Positions 7,258 to 35,273 of a DNA stretch of 49,713 nucleotides are shown piece after piece. Numbering within the stretch: the first letter of the stretch is position 1; every line of letters starts with the position of its first letter. Position numbers and translations under genes: made by a program. This DNA comes from a virus (taxonomy: Duplodnaviria > Heunggongvirae > Uroviricota > Caudoviricetes): the IMG/VR virus record IMGVR_UViG_2529292882_000007. One strand, written 5' to 3'. The notes beneath the pieces are model-generated. The model saw nothing but the letters and a program-made list of their open reading frames with translations. It did not search any database and was not told the DNA's origin.

Positions 7258-8800
7258 TTACCTCAGAAACAGGAGGCGTAATCAGCCCCAACTCACGGCG
7301 AGCATTCTCTTCTCTGCCACAAATTTGTGCGGTTTCTTCCCAGTTAAGACCTGACATTTCAGCCGCTTCCTTTTCACGGGTAGAGAATGTTTCCTCAACA
7401 CGCAGTTTTGCAGCTTTGACTTCTTTAAGGGGATCTAATTGGCCTTGTGATGGGCCATACCATTGAGCGCCACTCCATGCAGCGCGATATTCAGGCCCAT
7501 AAAAAAAACCAGGGGCAATAACACGACCTTTAGCAACGGCTTCGGCCAACCATTCCTCATAGATCGGTTGGCAAAATGACTGAACCATCCAGTCACGTCG
7601 CATACGGAACATTTTCCAGGCTTCAAGTAATGCGGCCCTGCTAGCGCTATAACTTGCTGTAAAATGCTTTACCAAGAGTTCGTAAGGGAGTTCTAAAGCA
7701 GCCCCAATTTGACGGCATATGGCGACAACAAAACCATCAAATGCCGTATTTGGTCGCCCGGGATTTGCTGTATCTATCGACTCACCTTCACCCAAACTTA
7801 CTATGGAGCCATTCCCCATTTCTTGGGTGTTATCATCATGGTTATCGATCTGCTCGTACTGAGGGATACCCGATTCACCGACTGGTCCATCAGGAGCGTC
7901 TGTTTTAATAAAGACAGTAAACATCCCTGACACAACCGCAGCAACCAATTCAGCATCGGTGTATCGTCCTAACTGCTTCAATGCTTCAATAACAGGAGCA
8001 AGTACAGGAACGCCACGGCGTTGCCCAGGCCTTTCAAAATCCTGCATGACATGCAGAATATTTCTTCTTCCTGTTTTACTCCCATATGCGGGAATACGTT
8101 CCCACTTGCGGGTTACAAAACCAGAAGTCCCGGCTGGGTGATGTTTTGCAACCCAGTACGCCACAGGCTCGCTAAATTCACCAACCTCTACGCCACCGTA
8201 AAGATTTGGTATAAAACGATCCTCTGGATTGCAAACACGATCACCTTCAATTAAATAGACGCACAAATCATATATAACACCCTTACGCTTAATAACTGGT
8301 AACGCAGCAAATATATCGCCAGATGTTAACGCAGATATTTGGACCAATGATTGCAATTGTCCAAAAGTACACATTCTTGATGCATCACAATTTGGAGAAT
8401 CAGCCCATAATCTAAACTCACGCTCAACATGCTTTTCCCATGCTCGCGCTTCTTCCTGCGTCATCCCCAAGAAATCGGCATCAATGTTCGCATTTAGTTT
8501 TAAACCGGAACCAACAACGTTTGTCCTGATAGTTTTTATTGCGCCAACCGATAGCGGGTTTCCCATGAAGAGATCACGAGAACGCTCACGCAATTTATCT
8601 ATATTTTTAACAATATCATCATCAGGAGAACCAGCTTTACTAAACCAACCCCTTAATGATTTTTTATGAGTGCTTGCACCATGACGTGAATATCCAAGGT
8701 TATTAATACCTTCAAGTGCTTCTAACCGTTTTCTTGCCAAAGCTCGATTTAATGCCCTCTGAGGTGAAAACGGCGCAATAACTCGATCAAGAATATTCAT
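7226..8800 (-). CDS. Portal protein (lambda gpB-like)
   Basis: 524-aa ORF following large terminase and gpW; lambda-B-like segments. Confidence 0.75.
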   Translation of the reverse strand: MNILDRVIAPFSPQRALNRALARKRLEALEGINNLGYSRHGASTHKKSLRGWFSKAGSPDDDIVKNIDKLRERSRDLFMGNPLSVGAIKTIRTNVVGSGLKLNANIDADFLGMTQEEARAWEKHVEREFRLWADSPNCDASRMCTFGQLQSLVQISALTSGDIFAALPVIKRKGVIYDLCVYLIEGDRVCNPEDRFIPNLYGGVEVGEFSEPVAYWVAKHHPAGTSGFVTRKWERIPAYGSKTGRRNILHVMQDFERPGQRRGVPVLAPVIEALKQLGRYTDAELVAAVVSGMFTVFIKTDAPDGPVGESGIPQYEQIDNHDDNTQEMGNGSIVSLGEGESIDTANPGRPNTAFDGFVVAICRQIGAALELPYELLVKHFTASYSASRAALLEAWKMFRMRRDWMVQSFCQPIYEEWLAEAVAKGRVIAPGFFYGPEYRAAWSGAQWYGPSQGQLDPLKEVKAAKLRVEETFSTREKEAAEMSGLNWEETAQICGREENARRELGLITPPVSEVNEQNMETDDA

Positions 8801-9047: not shown

Positions 9048-10904
9048 CTATATGGTTACGCCTTTACTTATAACTCTACGGCGTCTTCTACGTATACCTG
9101 ACGAGTTCTGCACATACACATTACCTCGCATTTCCTGTTCGGCAAGCCAGTTAAAATTAGGGTTCAGAATTTCCATCGCGGCAGTTGCATAGTTACGGCA
9201 ATCAAGAGGCTCGTTACGCTCGTAGACTTTCACCCACTTTTCTTTTGTCTGCCCATTTTTATATTCAAATATTTTCTTCTCTGATAATAATCCTTTAAAG
9301 TATTCGGTATCATATCCTCTGTCAGAATCTAATGGGAAATGCATATAACCAGGACCAGGATCATGTAGTTTAATTCTTGCCATGATGGTCCCTTTACCAT
9401 CATCAACCCCCAAATTAAACAACATAGCACCCACACGGTTATTATTACTTGGCTTTCCTATAAATGGTAAACCTACCCCACCACGCCCCCTGATAGAGTA
9501 TATTCGCCTTGATTCTCTCGGCTTAGTAAAGCGATATACCTCTGTCGTAAAATGCCCACCAGAGTCAATACAAACGGAAGAAATCTGTAATTTTCGACCG
9601 TCACGGAATGACCAGCTACGGAGTAAGTATTCATCAAGTTGTTTCCAGACAACATCTTGTGCGGGATCACCTGGGAATATTTTATATTCTATCCCCCATG
9701 ACTCCTTACCTTTTCCCCAACCGACCAATTCACAAACTAAATACGTGTCCTGTACGTCAACACCAGCACTTAACAATAAAACATCATCTGGTAAAAACTC
9801 TTCAAACCTTATTCTGCGTTGCAACAAGTATTCAGGATCGATATCGTCTTTAGCATCCTCTTTCCATGGCTCACCCAGCTTAAGGTTAATAAACTCCATT
9901 AATCCATTTTTATCGCGGTTTCTGGTTGCTTCCGTAAATTCTTCAACCAGCTCTGACAATGCAACCCACGGGGAGTAAAGACTGTTAATATGAAAACCAA
10001 CAATACCTTTAACTCCAGTATGTTCAGCTATCCATACCCCCTTCGCCAACCAATCAACGTCTGGTTTACCAGATCCGCGCATAATCCCGCCGCACTCACA
10101 GCACTCATATCTGGCCGTTTCCGGTAACGCCTCACCTGAATCGCTCTTATCCCATCTGACTTGCGACCATTTCATCACCTGCATGGTGCCACAACATGGG
10201 CAAGGAACATGGTAGTAACGCTGATCGGAGAGCTTAAACCACTTGTGGATTTTGCTCGTTTCCTCCAAAACAGGAGTAGAAACAAAAACTTTCTTACGAT
10301 TATGAAAGTTGGTAGTACGCTGAATACCTAGTTTTAGTGGGTCGCCCTCCTGCGTCACACCGTAACGATCAATCTCATCAGCTAACAGTATTCGAATTGG
10401 CCTGGATGCAAGACCTGCTGGGGAATTAGCACCAACAAGTGCTATATATCCACCAGCGTAATGCTTCATACGTATAGTCGTGCTGGACTTTTTGGCTGCA
10501 CCGCGCCCCTCTTTCCCTTCATGCAGCTTGTGTTTCAAACCAGGGGAATATTTGAACGTCGGATCAATACGCTCTTTTGAAAAAGCCTCAGCCGCCTCTA
10601 CCGTTGGATAAATCATCAACTGAGGAGATGGCTCCTGATCTGCAAAGTAACCCATAACATTTAGCTGTAATTCGGATTTACCAATTTGCGAGCTACATTG
10701 CATCACTACTGTTTCTGTATCAGCGTCACCAATAACATCCATTGGTTCACGCAAATATGGCACTCGGCTTGTACGCCACGGCCCTGGCTCTGGAGACGTT
10801 CCCGGCGCTACATGACGATACTTATCAGCCCATTCGGAAACAGTTAGCCGTGATTTAGGGCGAAGCGCACGGAAAAAAGCGGTGCTCCATACTGTTTCGC
10901 CCAT
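9048..10904 (-). CDS. Terminase large subunit (lambda gpA-like)
   Basis: 618 aa; segments VSEWADKYRH and HVPCPCCG resemble lambda A; follows small terminase. Confidence 0.85.
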   Translation of the reverse strand: MGETVWSTAFFRALRPKSRLTVSEWADKYRHVAPGTSPEPGPWRTSRVPYLREPMDVIGDADTETVVMQCSSQIGKSELQLNVMGYFADQEPSPQLMIYPTVEAAEAFSKERIDPTFKYSPGLKHKLHEGKEGRGAAKKSSTTIRMKHYAGGYIALVGANSPAGLASRPIRILLADEIDRYGVTQEGDPLKLGIQRTTNFHNRKKVFVSTPVLEETSKIHKWFKLSDQRYYHVPCPCCGTMQVMKWSQVRWDKSDSGEALPETARYECCECGGIMRGSGKPDVDWLAKGVWIAEHTGVKGIVGFHINSLYSPWVALSELVEEFTEATRNRDKNGLMEFINLKLGEPWKEDAKDDIDPEYLLQRRIRFEEFLPDDVLLLSAGVDVQDTYLVCELVGWGKGKESWGIEYKIFPGDPAQDVVWKQLDEYLLRSWSFRDGRKLQISSVCIDSGGHFTTEVYRFTKPRESRRIYSIRGRGGVGLPFIGKPSNNNRVGAMLFNLGVDDGKGTIMARIKLHDPGPGYMHFPLDSDRGYDTEYFKGLLSEKKIFEYKNGQTKEKWVKVYERNEPLDCRNYATAAMEILNPNFNWLAEQEMRGNVYVQNSSGIRRRRRRVISKGVTI

Positions 10905-10909: not shown

Positions 10910-11470
10910 TTATTCTTCCTGCTTAATAAATCGGGATTCCTGGAGCGCCTGAAGCGCAAAATTAATCTCGTCTTCAATAATGCGTTCGATCTCCCTGGCT
11001 GTTTTGCCTTCACAACGGGGAGCTGCTCTTGGAGCAATACTAAATAAGCGGCTACGCAATTCATTAGCTGCCAGAAATGCATCATCCCTGACCGCATCTT
11101 TAGCGATGAGAGAGCCTTCCTTTTCTTCAAATTCAAGGCGTTTCAGCTTTGCCTGATAAATTTTTTCTGCGGTCTTAGCCTTGTTGAATTGCACCGCAAC
11201 ACCGGAAGTACCACCAGCTAATCCGGCATCATCAGCGGGTAACTCTGGTTGTTCCGAAGATATCCCATGCCCTCTTTTTCCATTTTCAGCAGATACCTCA
11301 CGACCAACCTGTCGGCTCGCTTCATAAGCCGCACTAGCTTTATCAAAATCCAGCTTGCCGCTTTTCAGCACTGGAATGCGACCGGAACGACAGAGCTTCG
11401 TAACCATTGCCGGAGAAATACCTTTTCGGCGGGCAAACTCTGACTTACTGACGATGGCCATTACTTGCAA
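10910..11470 (-). CDS. Terminase small subunit (HTH DNA-binding)
   Basis: 186 aa with N-terminal HTH-like SKSEFARRKGISPAMVTKL; immediately upstream of large terminase. Confidence 0.6.
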   Translation of the reverse strand: MQVMAIVSKSEFARRKGISPAMVTKLCRSGRIPVLKSGKLDFDKASAAYEASRQVGREVSAENGKRGHGISSEQPELPADDAGLAGGTSGVAVQFNKAKTAEKIYQAKLKRLEFEEKEGSLIAKDAVRDDAFLAANELRSRLFSIAPRAAPRCEGKTAREIERIIEDEINFALQALQESRFIKQEE

Positions 11471-12051
11471 CCATTAGCAAGATACTGAACAAATCCCTCA
11501 TGCGTTTCATGCGCGTCGTGGTACTGACGATAAACATCCAGTAACAATGCAATTTCCATATCCGTCGCGGGAATACGTTCTTTATCAATAGCCAGGTACT
11601 TAATTTGAACAACAGGGGAAGAATTATCGTCTTCTTCCTGCGGCTGTTCATCGCTTAACATTTCGTCAAGCTCTGCATCATTAAACCCAAGCAGATCAAT
11701 ATCAAAATCATCATCCATTAACGCTTTGACTTCTTCGGCAAGAAGCTGCATATCCCAGCCAGCATTTAAGGCCAGCTTGTTATCTGCAATCCTGTAAGCC
11801 TTCTTCTGTTTTTCAGAAAGGTTACTCAACCGAATCGCTGGAACTTTATCCATTTCCAGAATTTCGGCTGCTGCAAGCCGCCCATGCCCCGCAATCAGTT
11901 CATTCTTTTCATCGATCAGCACAGGATTAGTGAAACCGAACTCACGGATACTGTTCACCAACTGTTCAACTTGCTCATCTGAATGAGTCCGTGAATTTTT
12001 GGCGTATCTGAGCAGCTTACCGACTGGTAAATATTCGATTTTTAGAGCCAT
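11461..12051 (-). CDS. ParB-like N-terminal domain protein (paralog 1)
   Basis: ParB-box-like AGHGRLAAA motif; 10-nt overlap with small terminase start. Confidence 0.65.
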   Translation of the reverse strand: MALKIEYLPVGKLLRYAKNSRTHSDEQVEQLVNSIREFGFTNPVLIDEKNELIAGHGRLAAAEILEMDKVPAIRLSNLSEKQKKAYRIADNKLALNAGWDMQLLAEEVKALMDDDFDIDLLGFNDAELDEMLSDEQPQEEDDNSSPVVQIKYLAIDKERIPATDMEIALLLDVYRQYHDAHETHEGFVQYLANGCK

Positions 12052-12417
12052 TTTTTAACCGCCATAACACAACAGGTTAAAGAAAACTGTTTAACTTATT
12101 GATACTAAAAGAGAAAAATGACGATCTTTTTACTCATAAAAAATCACACAAACCAGCATAATCATCTGATTTTATTAAGTTTTTATAAGTAAAAAGGATC
12201 TTGAGATGGTGTTTTGGTTAAAAGATTGGATGTATTTGCATGATTTATAACGATTTTTATTAGAACAACATCACATTGGTTAAAGATCTGCGCGTATCTT
12301 GATGATCTAAAAGAAAATTTTCTACTTTCTTTTTACCAGCACAAATACAGCAAAAAATCACGTTTTCCCGATATTTTTCAATGAGATGAGTAAATTTCTT
12401 TTACCGCAACTTTTAAC
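12052..12417. promoter_or_regulatory. AT-rich non-coding region with four GATCT sites, upstream of the packaging operon
   Basis: No convincing ORF; GATC at about 12123, 12197, 12285, 12304. Confidence 0.3.
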
Positions 12418-12608
12418 CTAACTTTTTTCACGTTTAGCTAGCCGAACATCGGGGTTCGAATGACCCGCATCCAACGCTTTTGGCCAGAAGGACCCAATTC
12501 TGCCGGACGATGAAACGATGCTCGTGCTCCCCCACAGACAGCCAGCGAGCGACGCTACAGAACACAGTGAATACACTCTGCATAACAACACCATCAACCA
12601 CACGATGA

Positions 12609-13328
12609 TTAACGAGAGAAGGTCTTAGAAAGAATGTCATCAATAGCCTTTGTGACTTCATCAGCAAACGCATCCTCACCAGCACGCAGCGCCACGCCAT
12701 GCCAATCAAGACGCTGCGAATAGTTAGGTTGCTGGATAAACGTAAGGATCAACGTAGGACGCCGCCCAACGCGCTGCCAGACGCCTGGTTGAAGCGGGTT
12801 ACTTGTACCAGGTCGAACAACAAAAAACTCCGTAGGCTTGCCCTGACGGCGATTTTGATGCGCATCTCGCTGAACTCTTAGGCCAGATAAGACCTGCTGT
12901 AATTGCCCCCGCGAAATATTCCCATATTTGTCCAGCTTTGCGCCGGGACCAGGAGCAAGCTGCCAGCCGTTAGGCAAATATCCACCAGCCCTTAGCGCCC
13001 CTTCTGAACGTTTGTACTGTCGTTGGCCACCTTCGATTTGCGGAGTCAACGTTACAGGGGCTGGCGTTCCGCCCCATTCACGAGCATACACAATGGCTGT
13101 AGGATCACTCTTCTTTGCGGCCAAAACGTAAGTAGAGTTCTGAATCCACGGCGTGGGCCTGTCAAATACCCGATTAATTTCATTCTTAATCGCAGCCTGA
13201 GAAGCCTTTGCCGTTCTGGTTGCCGCAAGCGCCATTGCGAACGGCAATTCGCGTTCTTCAAGGCGCTGGAGTTGTCGTTGAATATCCTGAGAAGAAAAAT
13301 CCATCTTTATCTCAATTCTGTCAGCCAC
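12609..13328 (-). CDS. Hypothetical protein
   Basis: 239-aa ORF downstream of the ParB-methyltransferase fusion gene. Confidence 0.4.
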   Translation of the reverse strand: MADRIEIKMDFSSQDIQRQLQRLEERELPFAMALAATRTAKASQAAIKNEINRVFDRPTPWIQNSTYVLAAKKSDPTAIVYAREWGGTPAPVTLTPQIEGGQRQYKRSEGALRAGGYLPNGWQLAPGPGAKLDKYGNISRGQLQQVLSGLRVQRDAHQNRRQGKPTEFFVVRPGTSNPLQPGVWQRVGRRPTLILTFIQQPNYSQRLDWHGVALRAGEDAFADEVTKAIDDILSKTFSR

Positions 13329-13344
13329 CAGCGCCTCCTACACA

Positions 13345-14724
13345 CTACTTAATCAACGGCCGGAAAGCCGCCAGCACATCATCAGATCGTCCGATTGTTG
13401 AACCACCAGGCAACGGCAACTCAAACTCAAAACGAACAGCTTTCTCCAGACTCTCCCAGCGAAGAGAATCATCGTTAATAACGTGCAAATACCAGCTCTT
13501 ACCGTTAAATACCGACCGCTTTATTCTGAAGCTATGCTCACGGCACAATTGCTTCACTTCCTCATCAGAATGAAACTTCTGATAAAACCAGTGTCCCTTC
13601 CGGTACAAAGCAGAAAAACCATTATGGTCAATAAAATAAAGCCGACTTATAGAGCTAGCAGCTTGCGTTCGTTTAAGCACACTCTCCAGCTCTCCACGGC
13701 TACGGCCAGAAAAGAATATTGACCCACCAGCTTTACACAGGCCTTTCAGAACCGTCAGAACGGACCATTCAGCCTCGACACTATCGACCGAGTTCAAAAC
13801 GCTATCGCAAATCACGTAGTCGTAACGCCCTCGCGTTTTTAAGTCGTCCACCAGCGTATCAATCATCCGGTTTGTTGCGGTCCTATCCAGAGTGTTTCCA
13901 GCGCCCTTACGGCGGAAAAGCTCGAGATCATGCAGGTTATATCCCTTTGCCCTGAGCATTCGCGCGTAGTCTCCCTGCCCCGAACCAAAATCAATTCCTC
14001 TTGGCGTCTTGGCAATGATCGGGAGGATCAACGACTCATACAGGTTTGATTTCAGGCTGCCACCATTACGCAACCGCATAAGCTGCGCATACGTCTGGAT
14101 GTATGTTGTTTTCTCCAGATGAGAATACTCAAATACACCATAAGTTTTATTCAGATAACTTTGGTATTTTTCCTTCTCAACATCAGGGATCACAAACACC
14201 GTTAGCGGTGTGCGCGTCATTTTCGCTGCTAATGCATACTGAGCACAGTGAATAACCTCACCAGACTGAGTAGCAACACAACCACCCCACGGACCATACT
14301 TGATAACCAGTTCCGCTATGTTCTTTCGAACATATGCCATTTTCGCGCGCATATTGCCTGAGATCTGGCTTGCCGATACCTGAACAAAACCATGCTTATC
14401 TTCTAGACCTGACACTCTGCAACGCTCATCTCCGCTGTCAAAATCCGTTCCGTTATGCAGTTGGTTAAACCGTACTTCGTCGTATACCGTCGTTTCACAG
14501 GGCAACACATACACCGCAGCACGCGTTATTCCCAACTTACGTAGCGCCTTCGTCCTTTGGTGTCCCGCCACCAGCAAATCGCCGCGCACTATCAATGGCT
14601 TCACAAGCCCCAGCTCCCTGACGCTTTCCGCCAGCCTCGCAAGATCATCCTCACCGATAAAACGCGGGTTATATTCCGCGCCGCGTAGGTGCGTTATGTC
14701 GTAATTGAGGTGAAGCATCAGCAC
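13345..14724 (-). CDS. ParB-like N-terminal domain fused to class I SAM-dependent methyltransferase-like domain
   Basis: N-terminal AGHQRTKAL ParB-box-like motif; C-terminal Rossmann motif I IDFGSGQGDYA and DYVICDSVLNSV; no DPPY/NPPY seen. Confidence 0.5.
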   Translation of the reverse strand: MLMLHLNYDITHLRGAEYNPRFIGEDDLARLAESVRELGLVKPLIVRGDLLVAGHQRTKALRKLGITRAAVYVLPCETTVYDEVRFNQLHNGTDFDSGDERCRVSGLEDKHGFVQVSASQISGNMRAKMAYVRKNIAELVIKYGPWGGCVATQSGEVIHCAQYALAAKMTRTPLTVFVIPDVEKEKYQSYLNKTYGVFEYSHLEKTTYIQTYAQLMRLRNGGSLKSNLYESLILPIIAKTPRGIDFGSGQGDYARMLRAKGYNLHDLELFRRKGAGNTLDRTATNRMIDTLVDDLKTRGRYDYVICDSVLNSVDSVEAEWSVLTVLKGLCKAGGSIFFSGRSRGELESVLKRTQAASSISRLYFIDHNGFSALYRKGHWFYQKFHSDEEVKQLCREHSFRIKRSVFNGKSWYLHVINDDSLRWESLEKAVRFEFELPLPGGSTIGRSDDVLAAFRPLIK

Positions 14725-15341
14725 ACCTCCCCAGCCAGCAATGCGGATACAAATCCGATATAGCTGCCATTATCATCAACATAACGAGACACCGCGCAGT
14801 CAAAACGATCCGCTTCCTCATCCGTTGCCGGGATTTTATGACCTCCAAATGACAGGTACTGAACTTTTACGCCTGATTTGGCCTCATCCTTCTCAAATGG
14901 GATATCCATACCCTCTGTGTCATCGTAGACTGCCGCACTCAATAAGTTATCCAGTTCGCGCTGAGTAAAACCAATTGAGTCCAGAGCAAAATCATTGGCC
15001 GCAAGATCTGCAAGCTCCGCGCTTAACAACTCTTCATCCCAACCAGCATTCAGCGGAATACGGTTGTCGGCCAGACGATATGCCTTCTTCTGATTCTCCG
15101 TTAGCCCTTCCAGAACAATGCAGGGAACATCATCCATCCCCAACTGAGTGGCCGCAGCAATTCGACCATGACCAGCAATTACAACGTTGTTCTCGTCTAT
15201 CAGGATCGGATTAGTCCATCCGTACTCCTGTATGCTGGCAACAATCTGATCTACCTGCTCCACGGAGTGTGTGCGAGCGTTCTTTTCATAACCAATCAAC
15301 ACAGAAAGTGGTAAAGAAACCACATTAAGATGTTTTGTCAT
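14718..15341 (-). CDS. ParB-like N-terminal domain protein (paralog 2)
   Basis: AGHGRIAAA motif; shares C-terminal KIPATDEE motif with paralog 1. Confidence 0.65.
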   Translation of the reverse strand: MTKHLNVVSLPLSVLIGYEKNARTHSVEQVDQIVASIQEYGWTNPILIDENNVVIAGHGRIAAATQLGMDDVPCIVLEGLTENQKKAYRLADNRIPLNAGWDEELLSAELADLAANDFALDSIGFTQRELDNLLSAAVYDDTEGMDIPFEKDEAKSGVKVQYLSFGGHKIPATDEEADRFDCAVSRYVDDNGSYIGFVSALLAGEVC

Positions 15342-15575
15342 GCCGTTTATCCGCTAAAATCCCCTCGCTTGTGCAAGCAAGTGGGCCTCGGTTTGTATCC
15401 ACGGCACCCTGTGGGTATGAATGACTGTCGTCAGGTCGCAACTGACGGCGGTCGCCCACCTTCCAGTAATAAAAAAGCCACCAGCATTAACTCCACAGCG
15501 AGCTGGAGTTAATGAGGCAGCTTTGGTTTGCGCATTATCGCAGCCCCTGATAGGCACAAGAGCTGCTGTAATGCG

Positions 15576-16055
15576 TTACGCAGGGATCAAACAGAGGCAG
15601 CCGTTATTTACCTCAATACGGGAATATTCCGGCTTACCATCCACGATTCCGGTAATGACAAGTTCGCCATCAGGCGACCATTCTTCTTTGTCGTCTTCAA
15701 GTACCGCGCCTTCTGGCAAATCAATACAGGCAAAAACAGGGCAGCCAGGATGACGTTTATCCTCCATCGCAATCAGCATCGACTCACCGAACCACTCTGT
15801 AGTAGCACGGCCATCAGCCGCCTGATAGTGAATCAGATACTGGTTTTCGCCATTTGCATACTGAGCACGGGCTTGAACTTCTCCCCATTCGTCACTGATA
15901 CGCATTGTTACCAGTTGGGATAATTCAAACTTAAACGGAACAGACTCTGCACCAATGGCAATCGGTTTATCTTCTTTCTTTTCCATAACATCACCTGAAA
16001 ATAAAAAGCCCCGCGACACCGCGAGGCTGTAAGAGTTACTTTCGATAGAAATCAA
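15576..16055 (-). CDS. Hypothetical protein (likely starts at internal Met, MEKKEDKP)
   Basis: ORF track. Confidence 0.35.
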   Translation of the reverse strand: MISIESNSYSLAVSRGFLFSGDVMEKKEDKPIAIGAESVPFKFELSQLVTMRISDEWGEVQARAQYANGENQYLIHYQAADGRATTEWFGESMLIAMEDKRHPGCPVFACIDLPEGAVLEDDKEEWSPDGELVITGIVDGKPEYSRIEVNNGCLCLIPA

Positions 16056-16188
16056 GGCGCAATTGCTCCCGCTTACGCCGAAAAGCTCTCTGCGCCACTA
16101 AGATGCGCCACAGGACACCAGCGATAACCACCAGCGAGATACAAAAACACACGGCCACAACCATCAGAAAAATGCCAACACCATTCAT
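16036..16188 (-). CDS. Possible small membrane peptide (50 aa)
   Basis: Hand translation MNGVGIFLMVVAVCFCISLVVIAGVLW...; below ORF-track size cutoff. Confidence 0.25.
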   Translation of the reverse strand: MNGVGIFLMVVAVCFCISLVVIAGVLWRILVAQRAFRRKREQLRLDFYRK

Positions 16189-16391
16189 GAAACTATCCAT
16201 TCTTCAATGAATATCTCCAGTAATGTCAAGAGATACGCCGTCCCCAGCGCGGTTCCTACCGATATAGCTAAGACAAACCTCAAAGATAACGAGGTGTCTT
16301 TCGCTTTTCTCCAGACGTAAGCGCCAGCCAGAAATACCAACAAATCTCTTATTGGAAGCGGAAACCAGAACAAATCACTCGGCAAGTCCAC
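16185..16391 (-). CDS. Small membrane protein
   Basis: 68 aa with two hydrophobic segments. Confidence 0.35.
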   Translation of the reverse strand: MDLPSDLFWFPLPIRDLLVFLAGAYVWRKAKDTSLSLRFVLAISVGTALGTAYLLTLLEIFIEEWIVS

Positions 16392-16393
16392 GG

Positions 16394-16849
16394 TTATATC
16401 CTTCCATTCATTTTTATCGGGTGACCAGATAGCCTTAGGCAGTTGAGCTGTAAAGCTCCTGTATCAACTAAATGATCAACTAACATGATTAGAGATTCAT
16501 ATTCAGCCAGATAGCTAACCTGACGCATTCGACCGCCGTTGTTCTCCAGAATGTCGGCCACCTTTGCAGCCAACTCGCTTAGACAGAAGAACTTATTCCC
16601 ATATATCGTTTTATACTCGCGCTTCTGGCATTCTTCGGCTTGCGGCTGGTTATCGAGAGCTATCAGCGACCGATGGCTATCAAGGAAGTCCACAATCTCA
16701 TTCAGGCACTCTTTGGCTGCCTCATCGTGACTTTTTCCGTATGCTTCATGGAGGACTTTCATCCTCATCATTGCTCCGTCACATATAGTCGAAAGCGCGT
16801 AAAGCACATCACTAACCGCCATTTCTTTTTTGGTGCTTGTCGAAGGCAT
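16394..16849 (-). CDS. Hypothetical protein
   Basis: 151-aa ORF in co-directional operon. Confidence 0.4.
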   Translation of the reverse strand: MPSTSTKKEMAVSDVLYALSTICDGAMMRMKVLHEAYGKSHDEAAKECLNEIVDFLDSHRSLIALDNQPQAEECQKREYKTIYGNKFFCLSELAAKVADILENNGGRMRQVSYLAEYESLIMLVDHLVDTGALQLNCLRLSGHPIKMNGRI

Positions 16850-16923
16850 CCCATGTTCTCCTTTGTCTGGATGTAAAAAAGCCCCGGCAATTGCCGAGGC
16901 TCGTTGTTCGTTATCGTTACGGT

Positions 16924-17124
16924 TTAATGCTCGCGTCGTCCGGCGACAACTTCGGATTTGTATTTCAGGTCGCCCAGCAAGAATTGCAGTTTAAGCATCT
17001 TTGCCGCCGTGTAGTTTCCTGATTCCACAACCTCTTTCATGAGGTCATAAACGGCCGCTACATCATCAGCCAGGAACTCTTTGCGTTGCTGCTCAGTCGC
17101 ACGTTTGAAGGAAATACGCATCAC
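16924..17124 (-). CDS. Hypothetical small protein
   Basis: 66-aa ORF, 4-nt overlap with upstream gene. Confidence 0.35.
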   Translation of the reverse strand: MMRISFKRATEQQRKEFLADDVAAVYDLMKEVVESGNYTAAKMLKLQFLLGDLKYKSEVVAGRREH

Positions 17125-17390
17125 TCATCATCTCCTGCCGCACATACAACCTCACAAAAAACATCAGCGGAATGTTTCTCCTTGAACGAATGACGCTCAA
17201 AACCGCACTCAATATCAGGCGCAAAAACATCCACCACATACGGTCTTTCAGAATGTTTGTTTTCCCAACGATAAGCCGTAGTGACGTTGAAATGTTTTAA
17301 CGCTTCACGGAACTCAACGCTGCCCGTCAGGTTTTTTGAGGTCAGGTATTGCAGGAGGTTTTTTACTACTTCACGGTCTTGTACTTTCAT
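17121..17390 (-). CDS. Hypothetical protein, first gene after repeated promoter/leader cassette copy 1
   Basis: ATG at 17390 preceded by GGAGATAACCCG leader shared with copy 3. Confidence 0.5.
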   Translation of the reverse strand: MKVQDREVVKNLLQYLTSKNLTGSVEFREALKHFNVTTAYRWENKHSERPYVVDVFAPDIECGFERHSFKEKHSADVFCEVVCAAGDDE

Positions 17391-17508
17391 CGGGTTATCT
17401 CCGGTTTAACCAGGGCGGGTATCGCTCGGTTTCGGGTATAACCTTAGGAAATTTTTTCCCACCCGTAAAGCACTTTTTATATAAATCTATAATTATATAA
17501 TTCTATGA
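17387..17508 (-). promoter_or_regulatory. Repeated promoter/5' leader cassette, copy 1
   Basis: About 96 percent identical to 35121..35242; contains TATATAATTATATA-type AT palindrome and identical RBS. Confidence 0.6.
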
Positions 17509-18090
17509 CACTTGCCAGAGAGCATCATGCAACTGGATACCTCCGTTGCACTGGTTGCCCCAGCCATGCCAGCCATCAGGTAAATCACCGCGAGCAAACA
17601 GCTCAATACGAGGAACATCGCCTAACAGCTTTACCAGCTTGTCACGGACCACATCAGGCTTCCGAGAATGCTCCAGACGAGGCGATGTAAACGACTGAAT
17701 GATCCCCGCATCAAGACGTGTCGGTAGTTTGCCTTTCACTGCAAACAAGCAATCTTCACTGTTTGCACGAGTCATATGCCCCATCCCCATCACCAGCTTA
17801 TCTGGTTGTCGGCTACCACATTTGTTCCATGTGAAGCCCTTCATGGTCATCAGCCTGAATCCCCATGCTTTCACCACCAGCAACGCTTCTTCTGGCTGAG
17901 TCGGAACCCACCACATGGCCAACAAACACGATTCAGGATTAGCAAGCTGCCATACAGGAATACGAGCAATATCCTCAGCTTTCATCGTTGGATACTTAAA
18001 ACCAGCGCCACGATTCCCATCCTTACACTTGTCTTTGTATTCCCAGGGGGGATCTGCATAAATCAGATTAAACAATGCAATTGCCTCCAT
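17503..18090 (-). CDS. MT-A70 family N6-adenine DNA methyltransferase
   Basis: Catalytic motif IYADPPWEY. Confidence 0.75.
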   Translation of the reverse strand: MEAIALFNLIYADPPWEYKDKCKDGNRGAGFKYPTMKAEDIARIPVWQLANPESCLLAMWWVPTQPEEALLVVKAWGFRLMTMKGFTWNKCGSRQPDKLVMGMGHMTRANSEDCLFAVKGKLPTRLDAGIIQSFTSPRLEHSRKPDVVRDKLVKLLGDVPRIELFARGDLPDGWHGWGNQCNGGIQLHDALWQVS

Positions 18091-18398: not shown

Positions 18399-18474
18399 TG
18401 GTGGCCCCTACCGGATTTGAACCGATGACCGTGCGATTATGAGTCGCCTGCTCTAACCACTGAGCTAAGGGGCC
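18399..18474 (-). tRNA. tRNA, anticodon CAU (ileX-like, Ile2/Met type), CCA encoded
   Basis: 76-nt sequence GGCCCCTTAGCTCAGTGGTTAGAGCAGGCGACTCATAATCGC...GGTTCAAATCC...ACCA on minus strand. Confidence 0.9.
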
Positions 18475-18643
18475 ATATTTGATCTGTTTGTCTGGTGTGG
18501 CGCCGCGCACGAAAATCCCAGCCAATAAATTCAGGATTTTTGGGCGCGGCGGCATATCAGACAAACATGGTTGATGCTTGCGCTCATGAGAAAAGCGCAT
18601 AGAATGTTGTAACTATATATTTATATAATTATAGAAATATATA

Positions 18644-18853
18644 TTACTTTGGGCAGTTGATTTCCCATGCCCTGTTATGAGCCAGAATATCTTTCTTTGT
18701 CTGGCGGTCCATAACATCGATGTCGTGATCAGTCAGGTAGATGGGCTTTACCCAATCACAGGCGGTATCAACCACCACCGGGACGCTTCCACGACTCCCG
18801 CAGCTCGCGATCAACATCGTCATCAGCCATATGGTTAACACTCTGCTGTACAT
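18644..18853 (-). CDS. o-spanin (Rz1-like lipoprotein), partly embedded in i-spanin gene
   Basis: Lipobox LIASC; overlaps 3' part of upstream ORF. Confidence 0.5.
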   Translation of the reverse strand: MYSRVLTIWLMTMLIASCGSRGSVPVVVDTACDWVKPIYLTDHDIDVMDRQTKKDILAHNRAWEINCPK

Positions 18854-23788: not shown

Positions 23789-23865
23789 TGTCGAGACGTC
23801 CTTATACATTTATATAAATATATAATTCTATATACGGCGGGAGACATCCCGCCGTAGGCTTACTG

Positions 23866-24933
23866 TCAGGCTTTTAATAGCGATTCTTTCAGATATCGGG
23901 CATCAGCCAGGGCGTTTGGAGTAATCTTGCGAACCCATGCATTACGAGTTGGACTCCACTTAAAGGCGCGTGATTTAAGCAGCGAACGAATGTTTGCCTC
24001 TGGTTTGCCAGGGAAATAAAACAGGATGCGGTTATCCTCTGGATCTATCTCCATAGAAAAGCCGTCGTATTCTTCGCGCTGTGATCCTGTTACAGACTTG
24101 ACCGATTCAAGCTCTTTAATACGGCTCTGTAGTCGTTTGATTTCGGCGTTATTGTTACTCAGTGAGTATGAAGGAAAGCCAATGTGCCCACAGAAATCTC
24201 CGGCGAGTAACTCTTTGGCTTCGCTTTCAGTAAACTCAAGGTCAATTAATGCGGAAAGCTGCTGTAATTGGTCTTTTTTGTATTTGCGAATAGCCTTATT
24301 TGCGGCCTTCATTTTGATGTGTGACTTCATGCAGCCTTGCAGCTTACGAAGCAACTTAAATAGCGCATCAGGATCATCAGACGAAACTCCATTACGGCCG
24401 ACACCTGCGGCTTTGCTTTCGTAGTACGATGCTCTGCTTTCACACTCAACAAACGATTTTCTGAATAACGCATCAGCTTTAGACAAACGGCGGCGATGGC
24501 CTTTCGCGCTATAATGGTCAACTAAAATCGGCTGGCCTAACGGGATCACATCCAACAGTTCATGCGCTCGCTTATGCGCCACCGCACCTTCTTTTCTGGC
24601 TTTTTCTGCACGAGCAATATATCGGGCAAGACGCGCGTTCTGGCGTTCCTGATAGGTATTTACGTAATCATCTCCGCGCTGCTGCTGTTCAAGCCATGCT
24701 TTGCGCAGCTTTTCTGTTACGTCTACCAACTCCGCAGGGATACAACCTGTTTGGGATTCATAAGAGTGACCATCCTCATAAAGACGTCCATCGTCTTCAA
24801 CAAAGAAAAAGGTGTCGTGCTCATCGCTTTTGACCATACGGCCATTAACATGACGTAATCTATAGCCAGTATCAGTGCTTAACAGGCTGTCAGGGTTGTT
24901 GATCCAGTCAGAAATAATTACTTGTTTATTCAT
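23866..24933 (-). CDS. Hypothetical protein (DUF3560-like by recollection), first gene after cassette copy 2
   Basis: Start ATG 24933 directly after shared leader; ORF-track start at 25083 runs through the leader. Confidence 0.45.
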   Translation of the reverse strand: MNKQVIISDWINNPDSLLSTDTGYRLRHVNGRMVKSDEHDTFFFVEDDGRLYEDGHSYESQTGCIPAELVDVTEKLRKAWLEQQQRGDDYVNTYQERQNARLARYIARAEKARKEGAVAHKRAHELLDVIPLGQPILVDHYSAKGHRRRLSKADALFRKSFVECESRASYYESKAAGVGRNGVSSDDPDALFKLLRKLQGCMKSHIKMKAANKAIRKYKKDQLQQLSALIDLEFTESEAKELLAGDFCGHIGFPSYSLSNNNAEIKRLQSRIKELESVKSVTGSQREEYDGFSMEIDPEDNRILFYFPGKPEANIRSLLKSRAFKWSPTRNAWVRKITPNALADARYLKESLLKA

Positions 24934-24939
24934 CAGATT

Positions 24940-25041
24940 TCTCCGGTTTAACCAGGGCGGGTATCGCTCGGTTTCGGGTATAACCTTAGGAAATTTTTTC
25001 CCACCTGTAAAGCACTTTTTATATAAATCTATAATTATATA
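24940..25041 (-). promoter_or_regulatory. Repeated promoter/5' leader cassette, copy 2 (immediately downstream of Q-like gene)
   Basis: Shares about 100 bp with copies 1 and 3. Confidence 0.6.
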
Positions 25042-25103
25042 TTTATAGATTTTCCGATGTTCCCGGTGCCTACAAATCACCAAAACAGCTCAAAATGACA
25101 CTT

Positions 25104-28751: not shown

Positions 28752-28775
28752 CTGCAAGCGGGCTAACGCCCGCTT

Positions 28776-28878
28776 ATATGATTATAGATTTATATAATTA
28801 TATAAAACGCTTTTCATCCGCCAAAAAGTTGGTTATGCTTACCTCGTTCTATAAATATAGATTTATAGAATTATATAA
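28776..28878. repeat. AT-rich palindromic repeat cluster upstream of parA (candidate centromere/operator)
   Basis: Two blocks containing TATATAATTATATA-like motifs. Confidence 0.45.
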
Positions 28879-28886
28879 CCAAACAC

Positions 28887-29555
28887 ATGGAGTCTCGACA
28901 AATGACTATCTCTGTAGGTATTTTCAACGGAAAAGGCGGCGTAACCAAATCAACAATTGCCCGTGCTTTAGCAGTTGCTTATGCAAAGGCCGGCTGGAAT
29001 GTATGCCTGATCGATATGGATGTGCTTAACGGAACGGTAACGCGTTGGGTACAACGCAGAATGGCCAACAATATCGAACCAGCAATCGCGGCACAGCCGT
29101 GCGGCACACCATCACAAGTCCAGAAAATCATCGAATCAGAAGTATACGACCTGGTTATCGTAGATGGCGGTGCCTACGCATCTGAATCAGTACCGAAGCT
29201 CTCTGAATTTCTGGATATGGTTATTTTGCCAACCAGATTCTCTACCGATGACCTGGAAACCACCGTTAACACAGCTCACGGCATCGTTAAAAAGGGTGTA
29301 CCAATCAAGAAAATTTGCATGGTGTTTTCCGGCGCGGCTGAAAACGAAGCTGACTATATTGAAGCCCAAGAGTACCTGGCTAATACGCCATACTTTGTTG
29401 TCGATAAGTACATTCCCCACAAGCCAGCTCTGAGCAAAGCTCAGGATAAGGGCTTAAGCCTCATTGAGTGCTCATACGTTGCGCCACGCAAAAAGGCAGA
29501 CGACGTTATTCAGGGGATTATCAACCAGCTTGAGGCTCTGACTACTGCCGCGTAA
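28887..29555 (+). CDS. ParA-family partition ATPase (small type Ib, ParF-like); probable start at 28902
   Basis: Deviant Walker A FNGKGGVTKST. Confidence 0.8.
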   Translation: MESRQMTISVGIFNGKGGVTKSTIARALAVAYAKAGWNVCLIDMDVLNGTVTRWVQRRMANNIEPAIAAQPCGTPSQVQKIIESEVYDLVIVDGGAYASESVPKLSEFLDMVILPTRFSTDDLETTVNTAHGIVKKGVPIKKICMVFSGAAENEADYIEAQEYLANTPYFVVDKYIPHKPALSKAQDKGLSLIECSYVAPRKKADDVIQGIINQLEALTTAA

Positions 29556-29598
29556 TATATAATTATAGTTTTATAGATTTATATAAGAGGGGATACAC

Positions 29599-29847
29599 AT
29601 GGCCGCACCATCAAAACCACCAAAGAAGAACAGCAAAGGCGTACCGCCATCGATCGAACAACCGCAGGTTTTCGACCCGACTGAAACGCCAACCAGAACC
29701 AAATCAGGTGGGGCACAAATGGCGTTTAACGTCGACCCTGAATTTAAACGCGAGTACAAAACGTTCGCCAGCTCAATGGATATGTCATTGAAAGAAGTGC
29801 TGACAAAATCTTTTGAGTTACTCAAGGCTCAATACAACCAGAAGTAA
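29599..29847 (+). CDS. Putative ParG-like ribbon-helix-helix centromere-binding protein
   Basis: 82 aa, basic/Pro-rich N-terminal tail, RHH-like C-terminal region; immediately downstream of parA. Confidence 0.45.
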   Translation: MAAPSKPPKKNSKGVPPSIEQPQVFDPTETPTRTKSGGAQMAFNVDPEFKREYKTFASSMDMSLKEVLTKSFELLKAQYNQK

Positions 29848-30069: not shown

Positions 30070-30091
30070 AAAAAAGGCCCCCGAAGGGGCC
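30070..30091. terminator. Hairpin terminator between convergent small genes
   Basis: GGCCCC cgaa GGGGCC stem with flanking A-run/T-run. Confidence 0.55.
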
Positions 30092-30097
30092 TAATCG

Positions 30098-30220
30098 CTA
30101 CTTGCTGCTAATGTTTATCGTCACATTCAGAGCGTTATCAGTAATCTTCCAACCCTCCCCATGTGGCGTAAACAAAGCTCCAGTAACAACGATAAAAATA
30201 CACATGTAGTATTTTTTCAT
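30098..30220 (-). CDS. Small hydrophobic peptide (40 aa)
   Basis: MKKYYMCIFIVVTGALF...; AAGGG SD upstream of ATG 30220; strong terminator downstream. Confidence 0.35.
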   Translation of the reverse strand: MKKYYMCIFIVVTGALFTPHGEGWKITDNALNVTINISSK

Positions 30221-30606
30221 TGTGTGGCCCTTACAGGCCGTTTCACGGCATCCCCACCGACGAAAATGACGCGAGAGCAAGCACGCTGTTTGTGCCTGCG
30301 TGGTACGGCAAGTGGATAATCCTTTCCTGAAAGTCAGTGCCCGGGTGCGAATCGGCGGAAAGGCCCCAAGCCATATTACACGTCATACCCTTCATAATGA
30401 AGGAATAAAAAACGCTTTTATTACATAAGATTACACGTAAATAAGTTAAAAACCTTCATTTTGCATGAGCTAATGAGCTAAATTTTTTTATATGAATAGT
30501 GGACTATTCACCTCAGTTGGGTAAGAATGTAGTTGCTGTTTGTGCTTGCGTGGTTGTATTTATACAACAACGTAATGCTGAAAGGACCGCGAATCCGATC
30601 AGCACG

Positions 30607-31479: not shown

Positions 31480-31720
31480 ATCCCGCCGTATTGACATGAA
31501 TGCGCCATTGGTGGACACTTTCCGAGCCGTAGCAAAATCTACGGTCGGGATTAGCCTCCTGAATAACACGATGGCGCATACCGCGTTAGCGGTTTTTTTT
31601 ATGCGTAGAGCACTGTTACGCCCAAATTATGGTGGGTCGTACAGGGGCGGAGAAATCCGCGCCGGTTCGTCATTGTGTCCGGTAAGGCTAACCCTGTACG
31701 GCTCACCACCATTTGATTAG
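31480..31720 (+). ncRNA. Candidate structured regulatory RNA/leader upstream of the small-ORF/antirepressor operon
   Basis: TTGACA at 31491..31496; hairpin plus T8 at 31580..31600; long-range stem 31631..31646 with 31692..31710. Confidence 0.3.
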
Positions 31721-31762: not shown

Positions 31763-31954
31763 ATGACAAACCTACCCCATGACTATTACGTCAACCTCGT
31801 AAAGATCCTTCTCAAGAAAGCCTCATACGCCGATAAATTCCGCCTGGCTGAAATCATCGAGCGCGAAGCTATGCGCATCGCCAGCAACGATAACGCTGTT
31901 TCTGACGCAAAAATCTCCCTCGTAACCAAAGTAGTTATGGGAGGTGCAAAATGA
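31763..31954 (+). CDS. Small protein upstream of antirepressor (Icd-like position)
   Basis: ATG 31763 with GGAG SD; 63 aa; stop overlaps antirepressor start. Confidence 0.4.
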   Translation: MTNLPHDYYVNLVKILLKKASYADKFRLAEIIEREAMRIASNDNAVSDAKISLVTKVVMGGAK

Positions 31955-35124: not shown

Positions 35125-35242
35125 CGGGTTATCTCCGGTTTAACCAGGGCGGGTATCGCTCGGTTTCGGGTATAACCATAGGAATTTTTTTCCCACCTGT
35201 AAAGCACTTTTTATATAAATATATAATTATATAATTCTATGA
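35121..35242 (-). promoter_or_regulatory. Repeated promoter/5' leader cassette, copy 3
   Basis: About 96 percent identical to 17387..17508. Confidence 0.6.
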
Positions 35243-35244
35243 AC

Positions 35245-35273
35245 ACAAAAAAGCCCCTTTGCAACAGGGGCTT
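35245..35273 (-). terminator. Intrinsic terminator after toxin-antitoxin operon
   Basis: AAGCCCCT ttgcaac AGGGGCTT stem with U-run on minus transcript. Confidence 0.6.

Follow-up and report, generated by a model that had tools for sequence, protein, structure and literature searches.

A probable accessory array of six small genes behind a repeated cassette in an E. coli phage-plasmid

Behind the first copy of a repeated cassette, a circular E. coli phage-plasmid of about 48 kb carries a run of small genes located between its lysis/tRNA/MT-A70 block and its ParB-like/packaging block, and the question raised by this locus is what such genes do for the element. The window analyzed was the whole stretch of 49,713 nucleotides of IMG/VR record IMGVR_UViG_2529292882_000007, and coordinates refer to it unless another genome is named. 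A sequence-only reading had proposed host-takeover or anti-defence functions, a role which is only a guess from protein size, divergence and the methyltransferase/ParB-like neighbours. We hold, with moderate confidence, that the genes form a lineage-specific accessory array of the phage-plasmid, the products of which would target the host cell or competing elements and have no part in virion assembly or replication.

Layout and transcription of the array

The six small ORFs (89, 65/66, 151, 68, 50/54 and 136 aa) which had been placed after cassette copy 1 are all present on the minus strand. The features of the locus, in the direction of transcription, are as follows.

17387..17508, minus strand: cassette copy 1, comprising repeats, a promoter-like site, the 5'UTR, an SD and the ATG of p89
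17477-17508, minus strand: TATA-type 8-nt periodic repeats inside cassette copy 1
17469-17464 (-35, TTTACG) and 17446-17441 (-10, TAAGGT), minus strand: sigma-70-like promoter with a 17-nt spacer
17402-17399, minus strand: SD GGAG ahead of the p89 ATG
17121..17390, minus strand: p89, first gene after the cassette, 89 aa, mildly acidic, predicted cytoplasmic
16924..17124, minus strand: p65/p66, 66 aa from GTG or 65 aa from ATG 17121, small helical basic protein
16879..16902, minus strand: T1, between p65 and p151, 10-bp G+C-rich stem and T6 run (terminator scan)
16394..16849, minus strand: p151, 151 aa, predicted all-helical, cytoplasmic, two domains
16185..16391, minus strand: p68, 68 aa from a GTG start, predicted small membrane protein
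16036..16200, minus strand: p50/p54, 50 aa from ATG 16188 or 54 aa from ATG 16200
16007..16028, minus strand: T2, between p50 and p136, 9-bp stem and T-run (terminator scan)
15576..15986, minus strand: p136, acidic, pI 4.4, net charge -14
15469..15524, minus strand: T3, long hairpin with T-run, after p136

The locus had been described as an operon. The term needs qualifying, as there are three units with two strong intrinsic terminators inside the array and a third one after it, in the order p89-p65, T1, p151-p68-p50, T2, p136, T3. Within units, stop and start codons overlap or lie 2 nt apart and the genes inside each unit are translationally coupled: the p65 start overlaps the p89 stop, the p68 GTG follows the p151 stop by 2 nt with an SD (GGAAGGA) ahead of it, and the p50 ATG at 16188 shares the sequence ATGA with the p68 stop. 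The alternative ATG at 16200 yields the MD... N-terminus found in p50 homologues. In relatives p65 is called by PGAP from ATG 17121, and no PGAP call is made for p68. The last protein had been given as 159 aa; that ORF exists (16055-15576, TTG start) and is the TTG-extended form of the 136-aa gene. The start is probably ATG 15986, since the PHROG match of the 159-aa ORF begins at residue 24, all homologues begin MEKKEDKP, the PGAP call is 411 nt in length and the 23-codon TTG extension would overlap T2 and the last part of the 50-aa gene.

There are three copies of the cassette, with 89-97% identity to copy 1 and an identical 5'UTR throughout. This 122-nt promoter/5'UTR/RBS cassette also heads a DUF3560/primase-like operon and a third operon, and from the common cassette it follows that the array is probably co-regulated with both. 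The hexamers of copy 1 are the weakest among the three and fall below the threshold of the promoter scan, which did detect the homologous promoter (TTTACA-17-TATGGT) of L016, a diverged relative. On the coding strand the scan returned no other sigma-70-like site and none ahead of p151 or p136, and we infer that the site in cassette copy 1 is the sole recognizable promoter of the array. Within the array the gap from a terminator to the next start codon is only about 20-30 nt. Expression would probably fall at T1 and again at T2 if nothing overrides termination, and read-through from the upstream MT-A70 gene may be an additional source of transcript. The genes that precede the lysis cassette include no recognizable antiterminator. 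Pairing of the cassette 5'UTR with the C4, isrK and ryfA RNAs of the element was considered and rejected, as the complementarity was no better than in shuffled controls. TATA-type 8-nt repeats also bracket the partition genes of the element.

The positions of all three terminators are conserved in L016. In the interior of the island, only the region around T1 (16900-16827) is still similar at the DNA level to that relative, in which an equivalent hairpin is visible at about 7949-7975; at the T2 position (9080-9098) L016 has a terminator of different sequence. T3 sits within a conserved, strongly structured 234-nt spacer (15342-15575, fold z-score -4.7) ahead of the ParB-like gene, and its hairpin is kept in L016 with altered stem bases. 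A search of the island with Rfam at a permissive threshold gave nothing credible.

Conservation, divergence and dispensability

Synteny of the array extends over a sub-lineage of circular phage-plasmids of about 48 kb, which was detected in 76 of 5,426 E. coli genomes and in three Yersinia phages. Relatives number roughly 76 in RefSeq E. coli and 63 in PLSDB, two sets that overlap, and one carried by E. coli ATCC 25922 is 48,488 bp long (NZ_CP101926.1). L016 contains all six genes in the same order at 30%-52% amino acid identity with no detectable DNA similarity, and the relative L023 contains five of the six, p68 being missing. The persistence of gene order where the DNA no longer aligns indicates that all six ORFs are real genes, and their intact, syntenic state in diverged relatives despite fast divergence argues that they are functional. 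The locus had also been taken for an insertion. GC content at 15-17 kb (0.47-0.49) does not differ from that of the flanks at 13-20 kb, and this, together with the gene order shared with L016 and L023, speaks against the claim and marks the array as an old, fast-evolving resident of the lineage.

The proteins of the array diverge three to four times faster than the flanking proteins, and between the window and L016 dN is 0.4-0.8 for the island genes and 0.14-0.21 for the flanks. Omega, where it could be computed, was lower for p89 and p136 (0.08-0.11) than for p151 and p50 (0.37-0.52). In comparisons of close relatives we counted 5 synonymous and 2 non-synonymous substitutions in p65, 7 and 21 in p151, and 4 and 10 in p50. 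The near-neutral pattern of the last two is compatible with relaxed constraint and equally with conflict-driven change, and with the frequent truncations and deletions it could suggest that the genes are decaying or non-functional remnants. This explanation, which we regard as extremely improbable, is largely refuted by conservation: six intact ORFs are kept in order in L016, omega is well below 1 where measurable, and 52 sequences from several genera share a highly conserved p136 core.

Description of the genes as accessory stood up well. In natural relatives p89, p136 or most of p151/p68 has been lost or exchanged for other sequence, and the breakpoints of the deletions, allele swaps and fusions in close relatives lie at or near gene boundaries; in the more distant relative L025 the whole array is absent and the same slot holds unrelated cargo. 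The p89 gene is cleanly deleted in two relatives (L001, L006) and swapped for an unrelated 86-aa gene in two others (L005, L008). The full six-gene set with the window-type allele occurs in only a minority of relatives, and the commonest class among the matches listed was that with 87% coverage (23 of 40). Deposited phage genomes lacking p89, p136 or the C-domain of p151 were also found; the variants include the Yersinia phages vB_YpM_39/41/44, three records entered as complete genomes of phages. As complete plasmids and these three phage genomes carry deletions, swaps and fusions, the array genes are dispensable.

Array products and their candidate roles

The six proteins were searched against Pfam, NCBIfam, PADLOC and PHROGs, and most alternative alleles and homologues against Pfam, PADLOC and PHROGs. 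That none could be assigned had been claimed before and holds on a wider search: there was no significant match for the six in Pfam, NCBIfam or PADLOC, sequence and profile searches of the PDB gave nothing, and the only matches were to PHROGs, all of unknown function. Homology to structural or replication proteins, which the sequence-only reading had named as the result that would speak against its proposal, was looked for in Pfam, PHROGs and NCBIfam and none was found. Four of the proteins are already catalogued by significant matches, p89 to phrog_6143 (E 3e-52, covering only positions 1-88 of a 218-position profile), p65 to phrog_6621 (E 7e-49), p151 to phrog_14707 (E 6.5e-106) and p136 to phrog_1935 (E 9e-66), while p68 and p50 stand outside PHROGs with no match above noise. 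Foldseek comparison of the low-confidence p136 and p151 models with the PDB gave nothing below E 0.3, and the Tudor/SH3-like and four-helix-bundle matches above that value were dismissed as generic noise. No literature on DUF2513 or on the WP accessions was found, and the only paper found which names a related phage (vB_EcoM-613R2) contains no functional data.

We propose that p89 and p65 would work as a small pair in the cytoplasm, with p65 as the partner that is always kept. The p65 gene is present in every variant examined, with a divergent allele in L005 and L016 (36% identical, E 4e-15), and tblastn against a phage collection matched three Yersinia phages only. Homologues of p89 comprise only 11 protein clusters, all from E. 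coli or metagenomes, and that of L023 is 71% identical (omega about 0.11). Two small overlapping genes, one product acidic and the other basic, do resemble a type II toxin-antitoxin pair, and p50 as a small hydrophobic peptide could be a membrane toxin; either would stabilize the plasmid-state prophage, and the cassette is common to a putative replication operon. Such a maintenance role is nevertheless very unlikely, given that no known toxin-antitoxin family was matched in Pfam, PHROG or PADLOC, no DNA-binding domain was detected in p89 or p65, p89 is deleted or replaced while p65 stays so that the partners do not co-vary, and a Gp49/HigB-like toxin gene is already present elsewhere in the element, as is a ryfA-type locus.

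The middle unit contains both of the membrane peptides noted at the outset, p50 and p68, as confirmed by hydropathy. The p68 protein has a clear TM at about residues 37-58 and a weaker N-terminal hydrophobic stretch; p50 is single-pass, with a maximum of 3.13 in a 19-aa Kyte-Doolittle window followed by a basic C-terminal tail giving a net charge of +7. This membrane character is retained in homologues (p68 of L016, 67 aa, 47% identical, E 3e-19, overlapping the upstream stop codon; p50 of L016 and L023, 50 aa, 29%-30% identical). The domains of p151 are residues 1-60 (N) and 72-139 (C), and an AF2 model from 7 sequences reached a pLDDT of 55. Its homologues form 16 clusters and vary in length, with 246 aa in L016, 123 aa (N-domain only) in L023 and 99 aa in the commonest allele of close relatives, in which p68 is kept with a new ATG start. 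An exhaustive HMMER search added two remote relatives only (251 and 323 aa), a third match being a repeat protein judged spurious, and a scan of genome contigs for p151 relatives found none. The N-domain of the long homologues has a sub-threshold match to DUF1804 (E 0.003-0.06) and a weak one to phrog_756, "DNA binding protein" (E 3e-4), which p151 of the window does not share and to which we give no weight. A lambdoid pair of a 141-aa "TerB-faint" protein and a 50-aa DUF3927 protein was compared as possible kin of p151 and p50 and found to be unrelated. We suggest that p151, p68 and p50 could form a small inner-membrane-associated complex of an exclusion or envelope-modulating type; such a complex would not be obligatory, since L023 has no p68 and many relatives have no p151 C-domain.

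Only p136, among the six, has relatives elsewhere, with homologues in 98 clusters from E. coli, Salmonella, Citrobacter and Enterobacter. The protein consists of a conserved core of about 80 aa and a 40-aa C-terminal extension, and an AF2 model from 52 sequences (pLDDT 50) allows the core to be described, with low confidence, as a small beta-barrel. In 14 of 14 places examined, on three backbones (lambdoid, Terminase_4-type and P2-like prophages), the family is found immediately after the Rz/LysB-type genes of a lysis cassette, and in P2-like prophages translation of one homologue is coupled to that of a LysB-like gene. We therefore describe p136 as a putative mobile late gene which would travel with lysis cassettes.

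This linkage bears on two other explanations. In the first, p136, perhaps with p68 and p50, would extend the lysis module and tune lysis timing or envelope disruption in an antiholin-like or spanin-associated manner. The array does lie downstream of the lysis cassette in the same orientation, and p50 with one TM and a highly basic C-terminal tail has a holin-like layout. However, a tRNA gene, a terminator-like hairpin and the MT-A70 gene separate Rz/Rz1 from the array, the array has its own promoter cassette, no holin or antiholin family was matched in Pfam or PHROGs, p136 is absent from a deposited phage genome and the element is already provided with a full lysis set (two holin-like genes, endolysin, Rz and Rz1), and we consider such an extension decidedly unlikely.

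The second is the anti-defence or anti-restriction island, in which early-made inhibitors of host RM or other defences would complement the MT-A70 and ParB-methyltransferase genes. The array is flanked by an MT-A70 methyltransferase gene and by ParB-like and ParB-methyltransferase genes, its proteins are small, quickly diverging and swapped between relatives, and the cassette promoter is common to operons that look early or replicative. DNA-mimic inhibitors are typically strongly acidic, as p136 is. Against this, the window proteins and alternative alleles had no match in Pfam, PADLOC or annotated PHROG families (zero PADLOC matches, with ten alternative alleles or homologues searched beside the six proteins, PADLOC holding models of defence and not of anti-defence), and the p136 homologues are found in late operons after lysis genes, too late to guard incoming DNA. 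Two of the six products are membrane peptides, which to our knowledge are unusual among inhibitors of cytoplasmic defence systems. The position of p136 at the ends of lysis cassettes points to a late or lysis-linked role at least as much, and we judge an anti-defence island unlikely.

A further, joint reading, distinctly improbable as a whole, would make the array a conflict module private to the lineage. In it p151-p68-p50 would be an undescribed membrane-anchored exclusion or counter-defence device, p136 a widespread factor travelling with lambdoid, P2-like and other enterobacterial lysis cassettes, and the whole array and the two other operons would be switched by the repeated cassette, the 8-nt repeats of which may bind the ParG-like partition protein. 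If that protein does bind the repeats, a link would exist between plasmid partition and global gene control.

Comparison with known systems

Morons such as lambda bor/lom and those of the HK97/HK022 type are small, dispensable, terminator-ended genes located between conserved modules and exchanged among genomes; the classical criteria are an own terminator, an own promoter, presence/absence, atypical composition and expression from a repressed prophage. The accessory array resembles them in several respects. Each unit ends in its own intrinsic terminator, its small dispensable genes lie between conserved late-region modules and are exchanged among related genomes, units are deleted or replaced among close relatives with the array absent from L025, and the p136 family holds the classic lysis-to-terminase slot in lambdoid prophages. 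It differs from morons in that only unit 1 is preceded by a promoter, the base composition is typical of the surroundings and the array recurs in synteny in diverged relatives instead of sporadically.

In plasmid leading regions, anti-restriction clusters accompany orphan methyltransferases and ParB-methyltransferase fusions. Small unannotated ORFs adjoin an MT-A70 gene and a ParB-methyltransferase fusion here as well, but the context is that of a phage late region, two of the products are predicted membrane peptides and no ArdA, KlcA, Ssb or PsiB-type genes were detected. Nor do the array proteins match known anti-defence proteins in sequence or fold (Pfam, PHROGs, NCBIfam, PDB, Foldseek). 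Likeness to type II toxin-antitoxin systems extends to the gene overlap of p89/p65 and not to family membership, as neither a toxin, an antitoxin nor a DNA-binding family was matched and p65 persists without p89. Likeness to holins or antiholins is confined to the single TM and highly charged C-terminal tail of p50, which has no holin-family match and is encoded 2.4 kb downstream of Rz1, outside the lysis cassette.

Phage-plasmids carry conserved phage genes beside variable accessory repertoires (PMC7969092). As at hotspots of such elements, a fixed slot holds differing cargo (the six genes, the unrelated genes of L025, swapped alleles), although no cargo of this slot has a recognized defence or anti-defence identity. 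Membership of the element in the pSLy3/SSU5 supergroup was considered and rejected, that supergroup being a distinct set of elements.

The present result is mostly one of annotation, namely that the genes are real, accessory and fast-evolving, and an ordinary accessory array would hold no surprise for the specialist. Should a role in exclusion, counter-defence or lysis control prove true, new families of small proteins would be added, in a well-delimited and non-essential set of six genes of which one, p136, belongs to a family already known from several genera and from three phage backbones. About 1.4% of complete E. coli genomes carry a member of this phage-plasmid family, and relatives are present in the reference strain ATCC 25922 (Seattle 1946).

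Gene calls and transcription units of the array

The six small minus-strand ORFs that the sequence-only reading had placed behind cassette copy 1 were present as described, with three refinements of start sites, and their products are named here by length (p89, p65, p151, p68, p50 and p136). The last had been read as a protein of 159 aa; that ORF exists, but a 136-aa reading that starts at ATG 15986 is preferable, since the PHROG match starts at residue 24 of the longer version, MEKKEDKP forms the N-terminus of all p136 homologues, PGAP calls the gene at 411 nt in relatives, and the TTG extension would cross terminator T2. The second gene encodes 65 aa from an ATG or 66 aa from a GTG. The fifth encodes 50 aa from ATG 16188, overlapping the p68 stop as ATGA, and an alternative start at ATG 16200 (54 aa) gives the "MD" N-terminus common to its homologues. 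A plausible Shine-Dalgarno sequence was found ahead of each of the six genes.

This gene run had also been called an operon. The run is there, but two strong intrinsic terminators inside it argue against a plain operon; the layout is p89-p65, T1, p151-p68-p50, T2, p136, T3, and within units stop and start codons overlap or sit 2 nt apart.

Terminators of the array
16902-16879, minus strand, T1: strong intrinsic terminator inside the array
16028-16007, minus strand, T2: strong intrinsic terminator inside the array
~15524-15469, minus strand, T3: long hairpin after p136

Judged from sequence, the terminator architecture itself is conserved, since in L016, a diverged 47-kb IMG/VR contig of the same family, terminators occupy equivalent positions with partly unrelated sequence. 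The sole promoter-like element on the array coding strand lies in cassette copy 1 (TTTACG, 17 nt, TAAGGT), and the homologous L016 site (TTTACA-17-TATGGT) exceeded the promoter-scan threshold. Because the next start codon follows only ~20-30 nt beyond T1 and T2, too short a gap to fit a promoter, units 2 and 3 are probably transcribed through read-through.

T3 lies in the 234 nt that separate p136 from the ParB-like gene (15342-15575); this spacer shows strong structure (MFE -98 kcal/mol, z = -4.7) and is kept in L016 with changed stem bases; ~100 nt of it was found at 92% identity in one STEC chromosome. No Rfam match was obtained in the spacer, which besides carrying T3 may contain a leader or small RNA for the ParB operon. 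All genes surrounding the array are on the minus strand. ParB/Srx-like genes are unusually dense at 11461-15341 (196 aa, 207 aa and a 459-aa ParB-methyltransferase fusion), and an MT-A70 methyltransferase (17503-18090) joins them between the lysis cassette and the terminase genes.

Conservation and mosaicism

Flanking proteins of the window and L016 (MT-A70, ParB-like, ParB-methyltransferase and a 239-aa protein) are 76-90% identical, and L016 carries six ORFs in matching order between MT-A70 and ParB.

Homologues of the array proteins in L016 (length, amino-acid identity)
p89: 97 aa, 47%
p65: 64 aa, 36%
p151 (C-half): 246 aa, 48%
p68: 67 aa, 47% (E 3e-19)
p50: 50 aa, 30%
p136 (core): 87 aa, 52%

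DNA similarity within the island was undetectable between the window and L016, except in the cassette and over 74 nt near T1 and the start of p151. By this comparison the six ORFs are real genes, and p68, left unannotated by PGAP, is validated in particular because its homologue is kept where the DNA is no longer similar. In a second diverged family member (L023), p89 and p65 are kept at 71% identity and p151 is short, having the N-domain alone; p50 and p136 are also encoded, p68 is absent and one extra gene is present.

Nei-Gojobori omega values (unsaturated dS only) were 0.11 for p89, 0.08 for p136, 0.37-0.39 for p151 and ~0.5 for p50, with flanks at 0.05-0.12, and dN between the window and L016 was 0.39-0.69 for island genes and 0.14-0.21 for flanks. 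Synonymous versus non-synonymous changes among close relatives numbered 26 versus 6 in MT-A70, 7 versus 21 in p151 and 4 versus 10 in p50. From these rates and counts we infer that the array genes are functional, several of them under weak or shifting constraint; the chance that they are non-functional ORFs appears negligible.

Comparison of the window with ten close relatives revealed homology breaks at or near gene boundaries (17382/17367, 17125, 16908, 16743, 16671, 16384, 16262, 16058, 15966 and 15574).

Array variants in close relatives
p89 deleted, leaving a 73-aa fusion of the first 8 p89 codons and p65: L001, L006
p89 and p65 replaced by an unrelated 86-aa gene and a p65 allele 36% identical: L005, L008
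p151 C-domain replaced, giving a 99-aa protein, with p68 kept from a new ATG start: L004
most of p151 and p68 deleted: L009
p136 replaced by a protein annotated by PGAP as DUF2513-containing: L002, L006
p136 fused to a tail-fibre-assembly fragment: L001, L007

The 99-aa class of p151 was the commonest (23 of 40 among the matches listed). The DUF2513 match was sub-threshold in Pfam (E 0.0015, 19.3 bits against a 29.6-bit cut-off). Variants of these kinds are carried by three Yersinia phage records which match the window and were deposited as complete phage genomes (vB_YpM_39, 41 and 44); if their isolates were viable virions, which the deposition suggests, p89, the p151 C-domain and p136 are dispensable for phage production. 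In L025, a relative at greater distance (ParB 59% identical), the slot between lysis cassette and ParB has three unrelated small genes and no MT-A70. These deletions, replacements, fusions and unrelated cargo bear out the accessory appearance noted earlier. The insertion also proposed is not a recent one, given a GC content equal to that of the flanks and the gene order kept in L016; the slot is variable, and one sub-lineage fills it with an array that is old and evolves fast. Among known arrangements the array comes nearest to the phage moron, or accessory hotspot, with which it shares terminators and presence/absence variation, whereas it lacks a moron's own promoter for each unit and atypical composition.

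Protein distribution and candidate functions

None of the six proteins had been assignable by motif, and this held: no significant match was obtained for any of them in Pfam, NCBIfam, PADLOC or PDB sequences, and four of the six match PHROGs, all without assigned function. The array sequences are thus already catalogued, as hypothetical proteins and functionless PHROGs. Neither homology searches nor structure prediction assigned a function; the two AF2 models (p136 and p151) were of low confidence (pLDDT 50 and 55) and gave no Foldseek match below E 0.3. Hydropathy supported the two membrane peptides proposed earlier, p50 (a strong TM segment and a basic tail, net +7) and p68 (one clear and one weaker hydrophobic segment).

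Five of the proteins (p89, p65, p151, p68 and p50) were found solely within the window's phage-plasmid family, with 11 protein clusters for p89 and 16 for p151. An exhaustive HMMER search with p151 added only two longer relatives (251 and 323 aa) sharing both end domains, the 323-aa one ~80% identical to the L016 homologue, and tblastn matches to p65 were limited to the three Yersinia phages. The p136 homologues, by contrast, form 98 clusters from E. coli, Salmonella, Citrobacter and Enterobacter and share a core of ~80 aa that is highly conserved. A lysis cassette directly precedes the p136 homologue at all 14 of the genomic places examined. The homologue sits between spanin genes and Nu1 in lambdoid prophages and is flanked by Rz and an HNH/Terminase_4 block in Salmonella prophages, and in P2-like prophages its start overlaps the stop of a DUF2514/LysB-like gene.

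With moderate confidence we favour an accessory array that is dispensable and acts on competing elements or the host envelope, in which p151-p68-p50 would form a translationally coupled, membrane-associated trio, p136 would be a mobile late gene linked to lysis cassettes, and p89-p65 a small cytoplasmic pair with p65 as its constant member. The anti-defence role suggested by the sequence-only reading seems unlikely, the late-operon setting of p136 homologues fitting it poorly, and a role in tuning lysis is more doubtful still.

Lambdoid E. coli prophages (L010 2344-2918, L014 and L056) encode, just upstream of holin genes, a 141-aa protein that matches TerB faintly and a 50-aa DUF3927 protein; as counterparts of p151 and p50 these are a superficial parallel only, the sequences being unrelated.

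Cassette copies, repeats and the phage-plasmid genome

The 122-nt cassette comprises TATA-type repeats, a sigma-70-like promoter, an identical 5'UTR, an RBS and an ATG, and occurs in three copies.

Cassette copies
17387-17508, minus strand: heads the small-gene array; weakest promoter hexamers of the three
24929-25050: heads the DUF3560/primase-like gene (23866-24933)
35121-35242: heads the 126-aa gene (34744-35124)

That one cassette heads all three operons suggests that the array may be co-regulated with the other two. Its repeats have an 8-nt period (unit ~TTATAKAW, three to five units per site) and occupy eight intergenic sites; a 22-nt repeat pattern gave 29 matches against 0 expected from shuffles.

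Sites of 8-nt-period repeats
17477-17508
18605-18652
23794-23840
25019-25050
28774-28805
28847-28886
29555-29594
35203-35250

Two clusters bracket the ParA-like gene (28887-29555), which is followed by an 82-aa ORF (29599-29847, phrog_6024). This ORF had no match in Pfam or PDB and may resemble a ParG-type protein, its N-tail being disordered and basic and its C-half possibly a ribbon-helix-helix. The repeats may serve as dispersed sites for partition or as operators. That the array is a conflict module private to its lineage, co-switched via the repeated cassette with its partition-type repeats, is doubtful, and a maintenance or toxin-antitoxin role is highly improbable.

Bases 1-95 of the window recur exactly at 49619-49713, an assembly overlap that closes a circular genome of ~49.6 kb. 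Of 5,426 complete E. coli genomes, 76 have near-identical DNA on circular plasmids of ~47-49 kb; in these genomes plasmids account for 215 of the 220 places matching window DNA, and PLSDB holds window-like DNA on 63 plasmids, nearly all non-mobilizable. The element is a phage-plasmid, since it encodes terminase, portal, tail and lysis genes together with a LexA/CI-like repressor, a ParA-like partition ATPase and a P1/P7-type C4 antisense RNA beside an anti-repressor. Rfam placed isrK and the C4 RNA directly upstream of the 383-aa anti-repressor gene (31951-33102), the P1/P7-type immunity I arrangement, and also detected ryfA RNA; the RNA regions are 31526-31713 and 30070-30368. A tRNA with a CAT anticodon (18399-18474) was called tRNA-Met by ARAGORN and tRNA-Ile by PGAP in relatives. 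A DNA invertase gene adjoins oppositely oriented ORFs and a 750-aa ORF (regions 38561-39115 and 39563-43249) with internal 93-nt repeats at 42282-42674; the region may be an invertible tail-fibre host-range switch.
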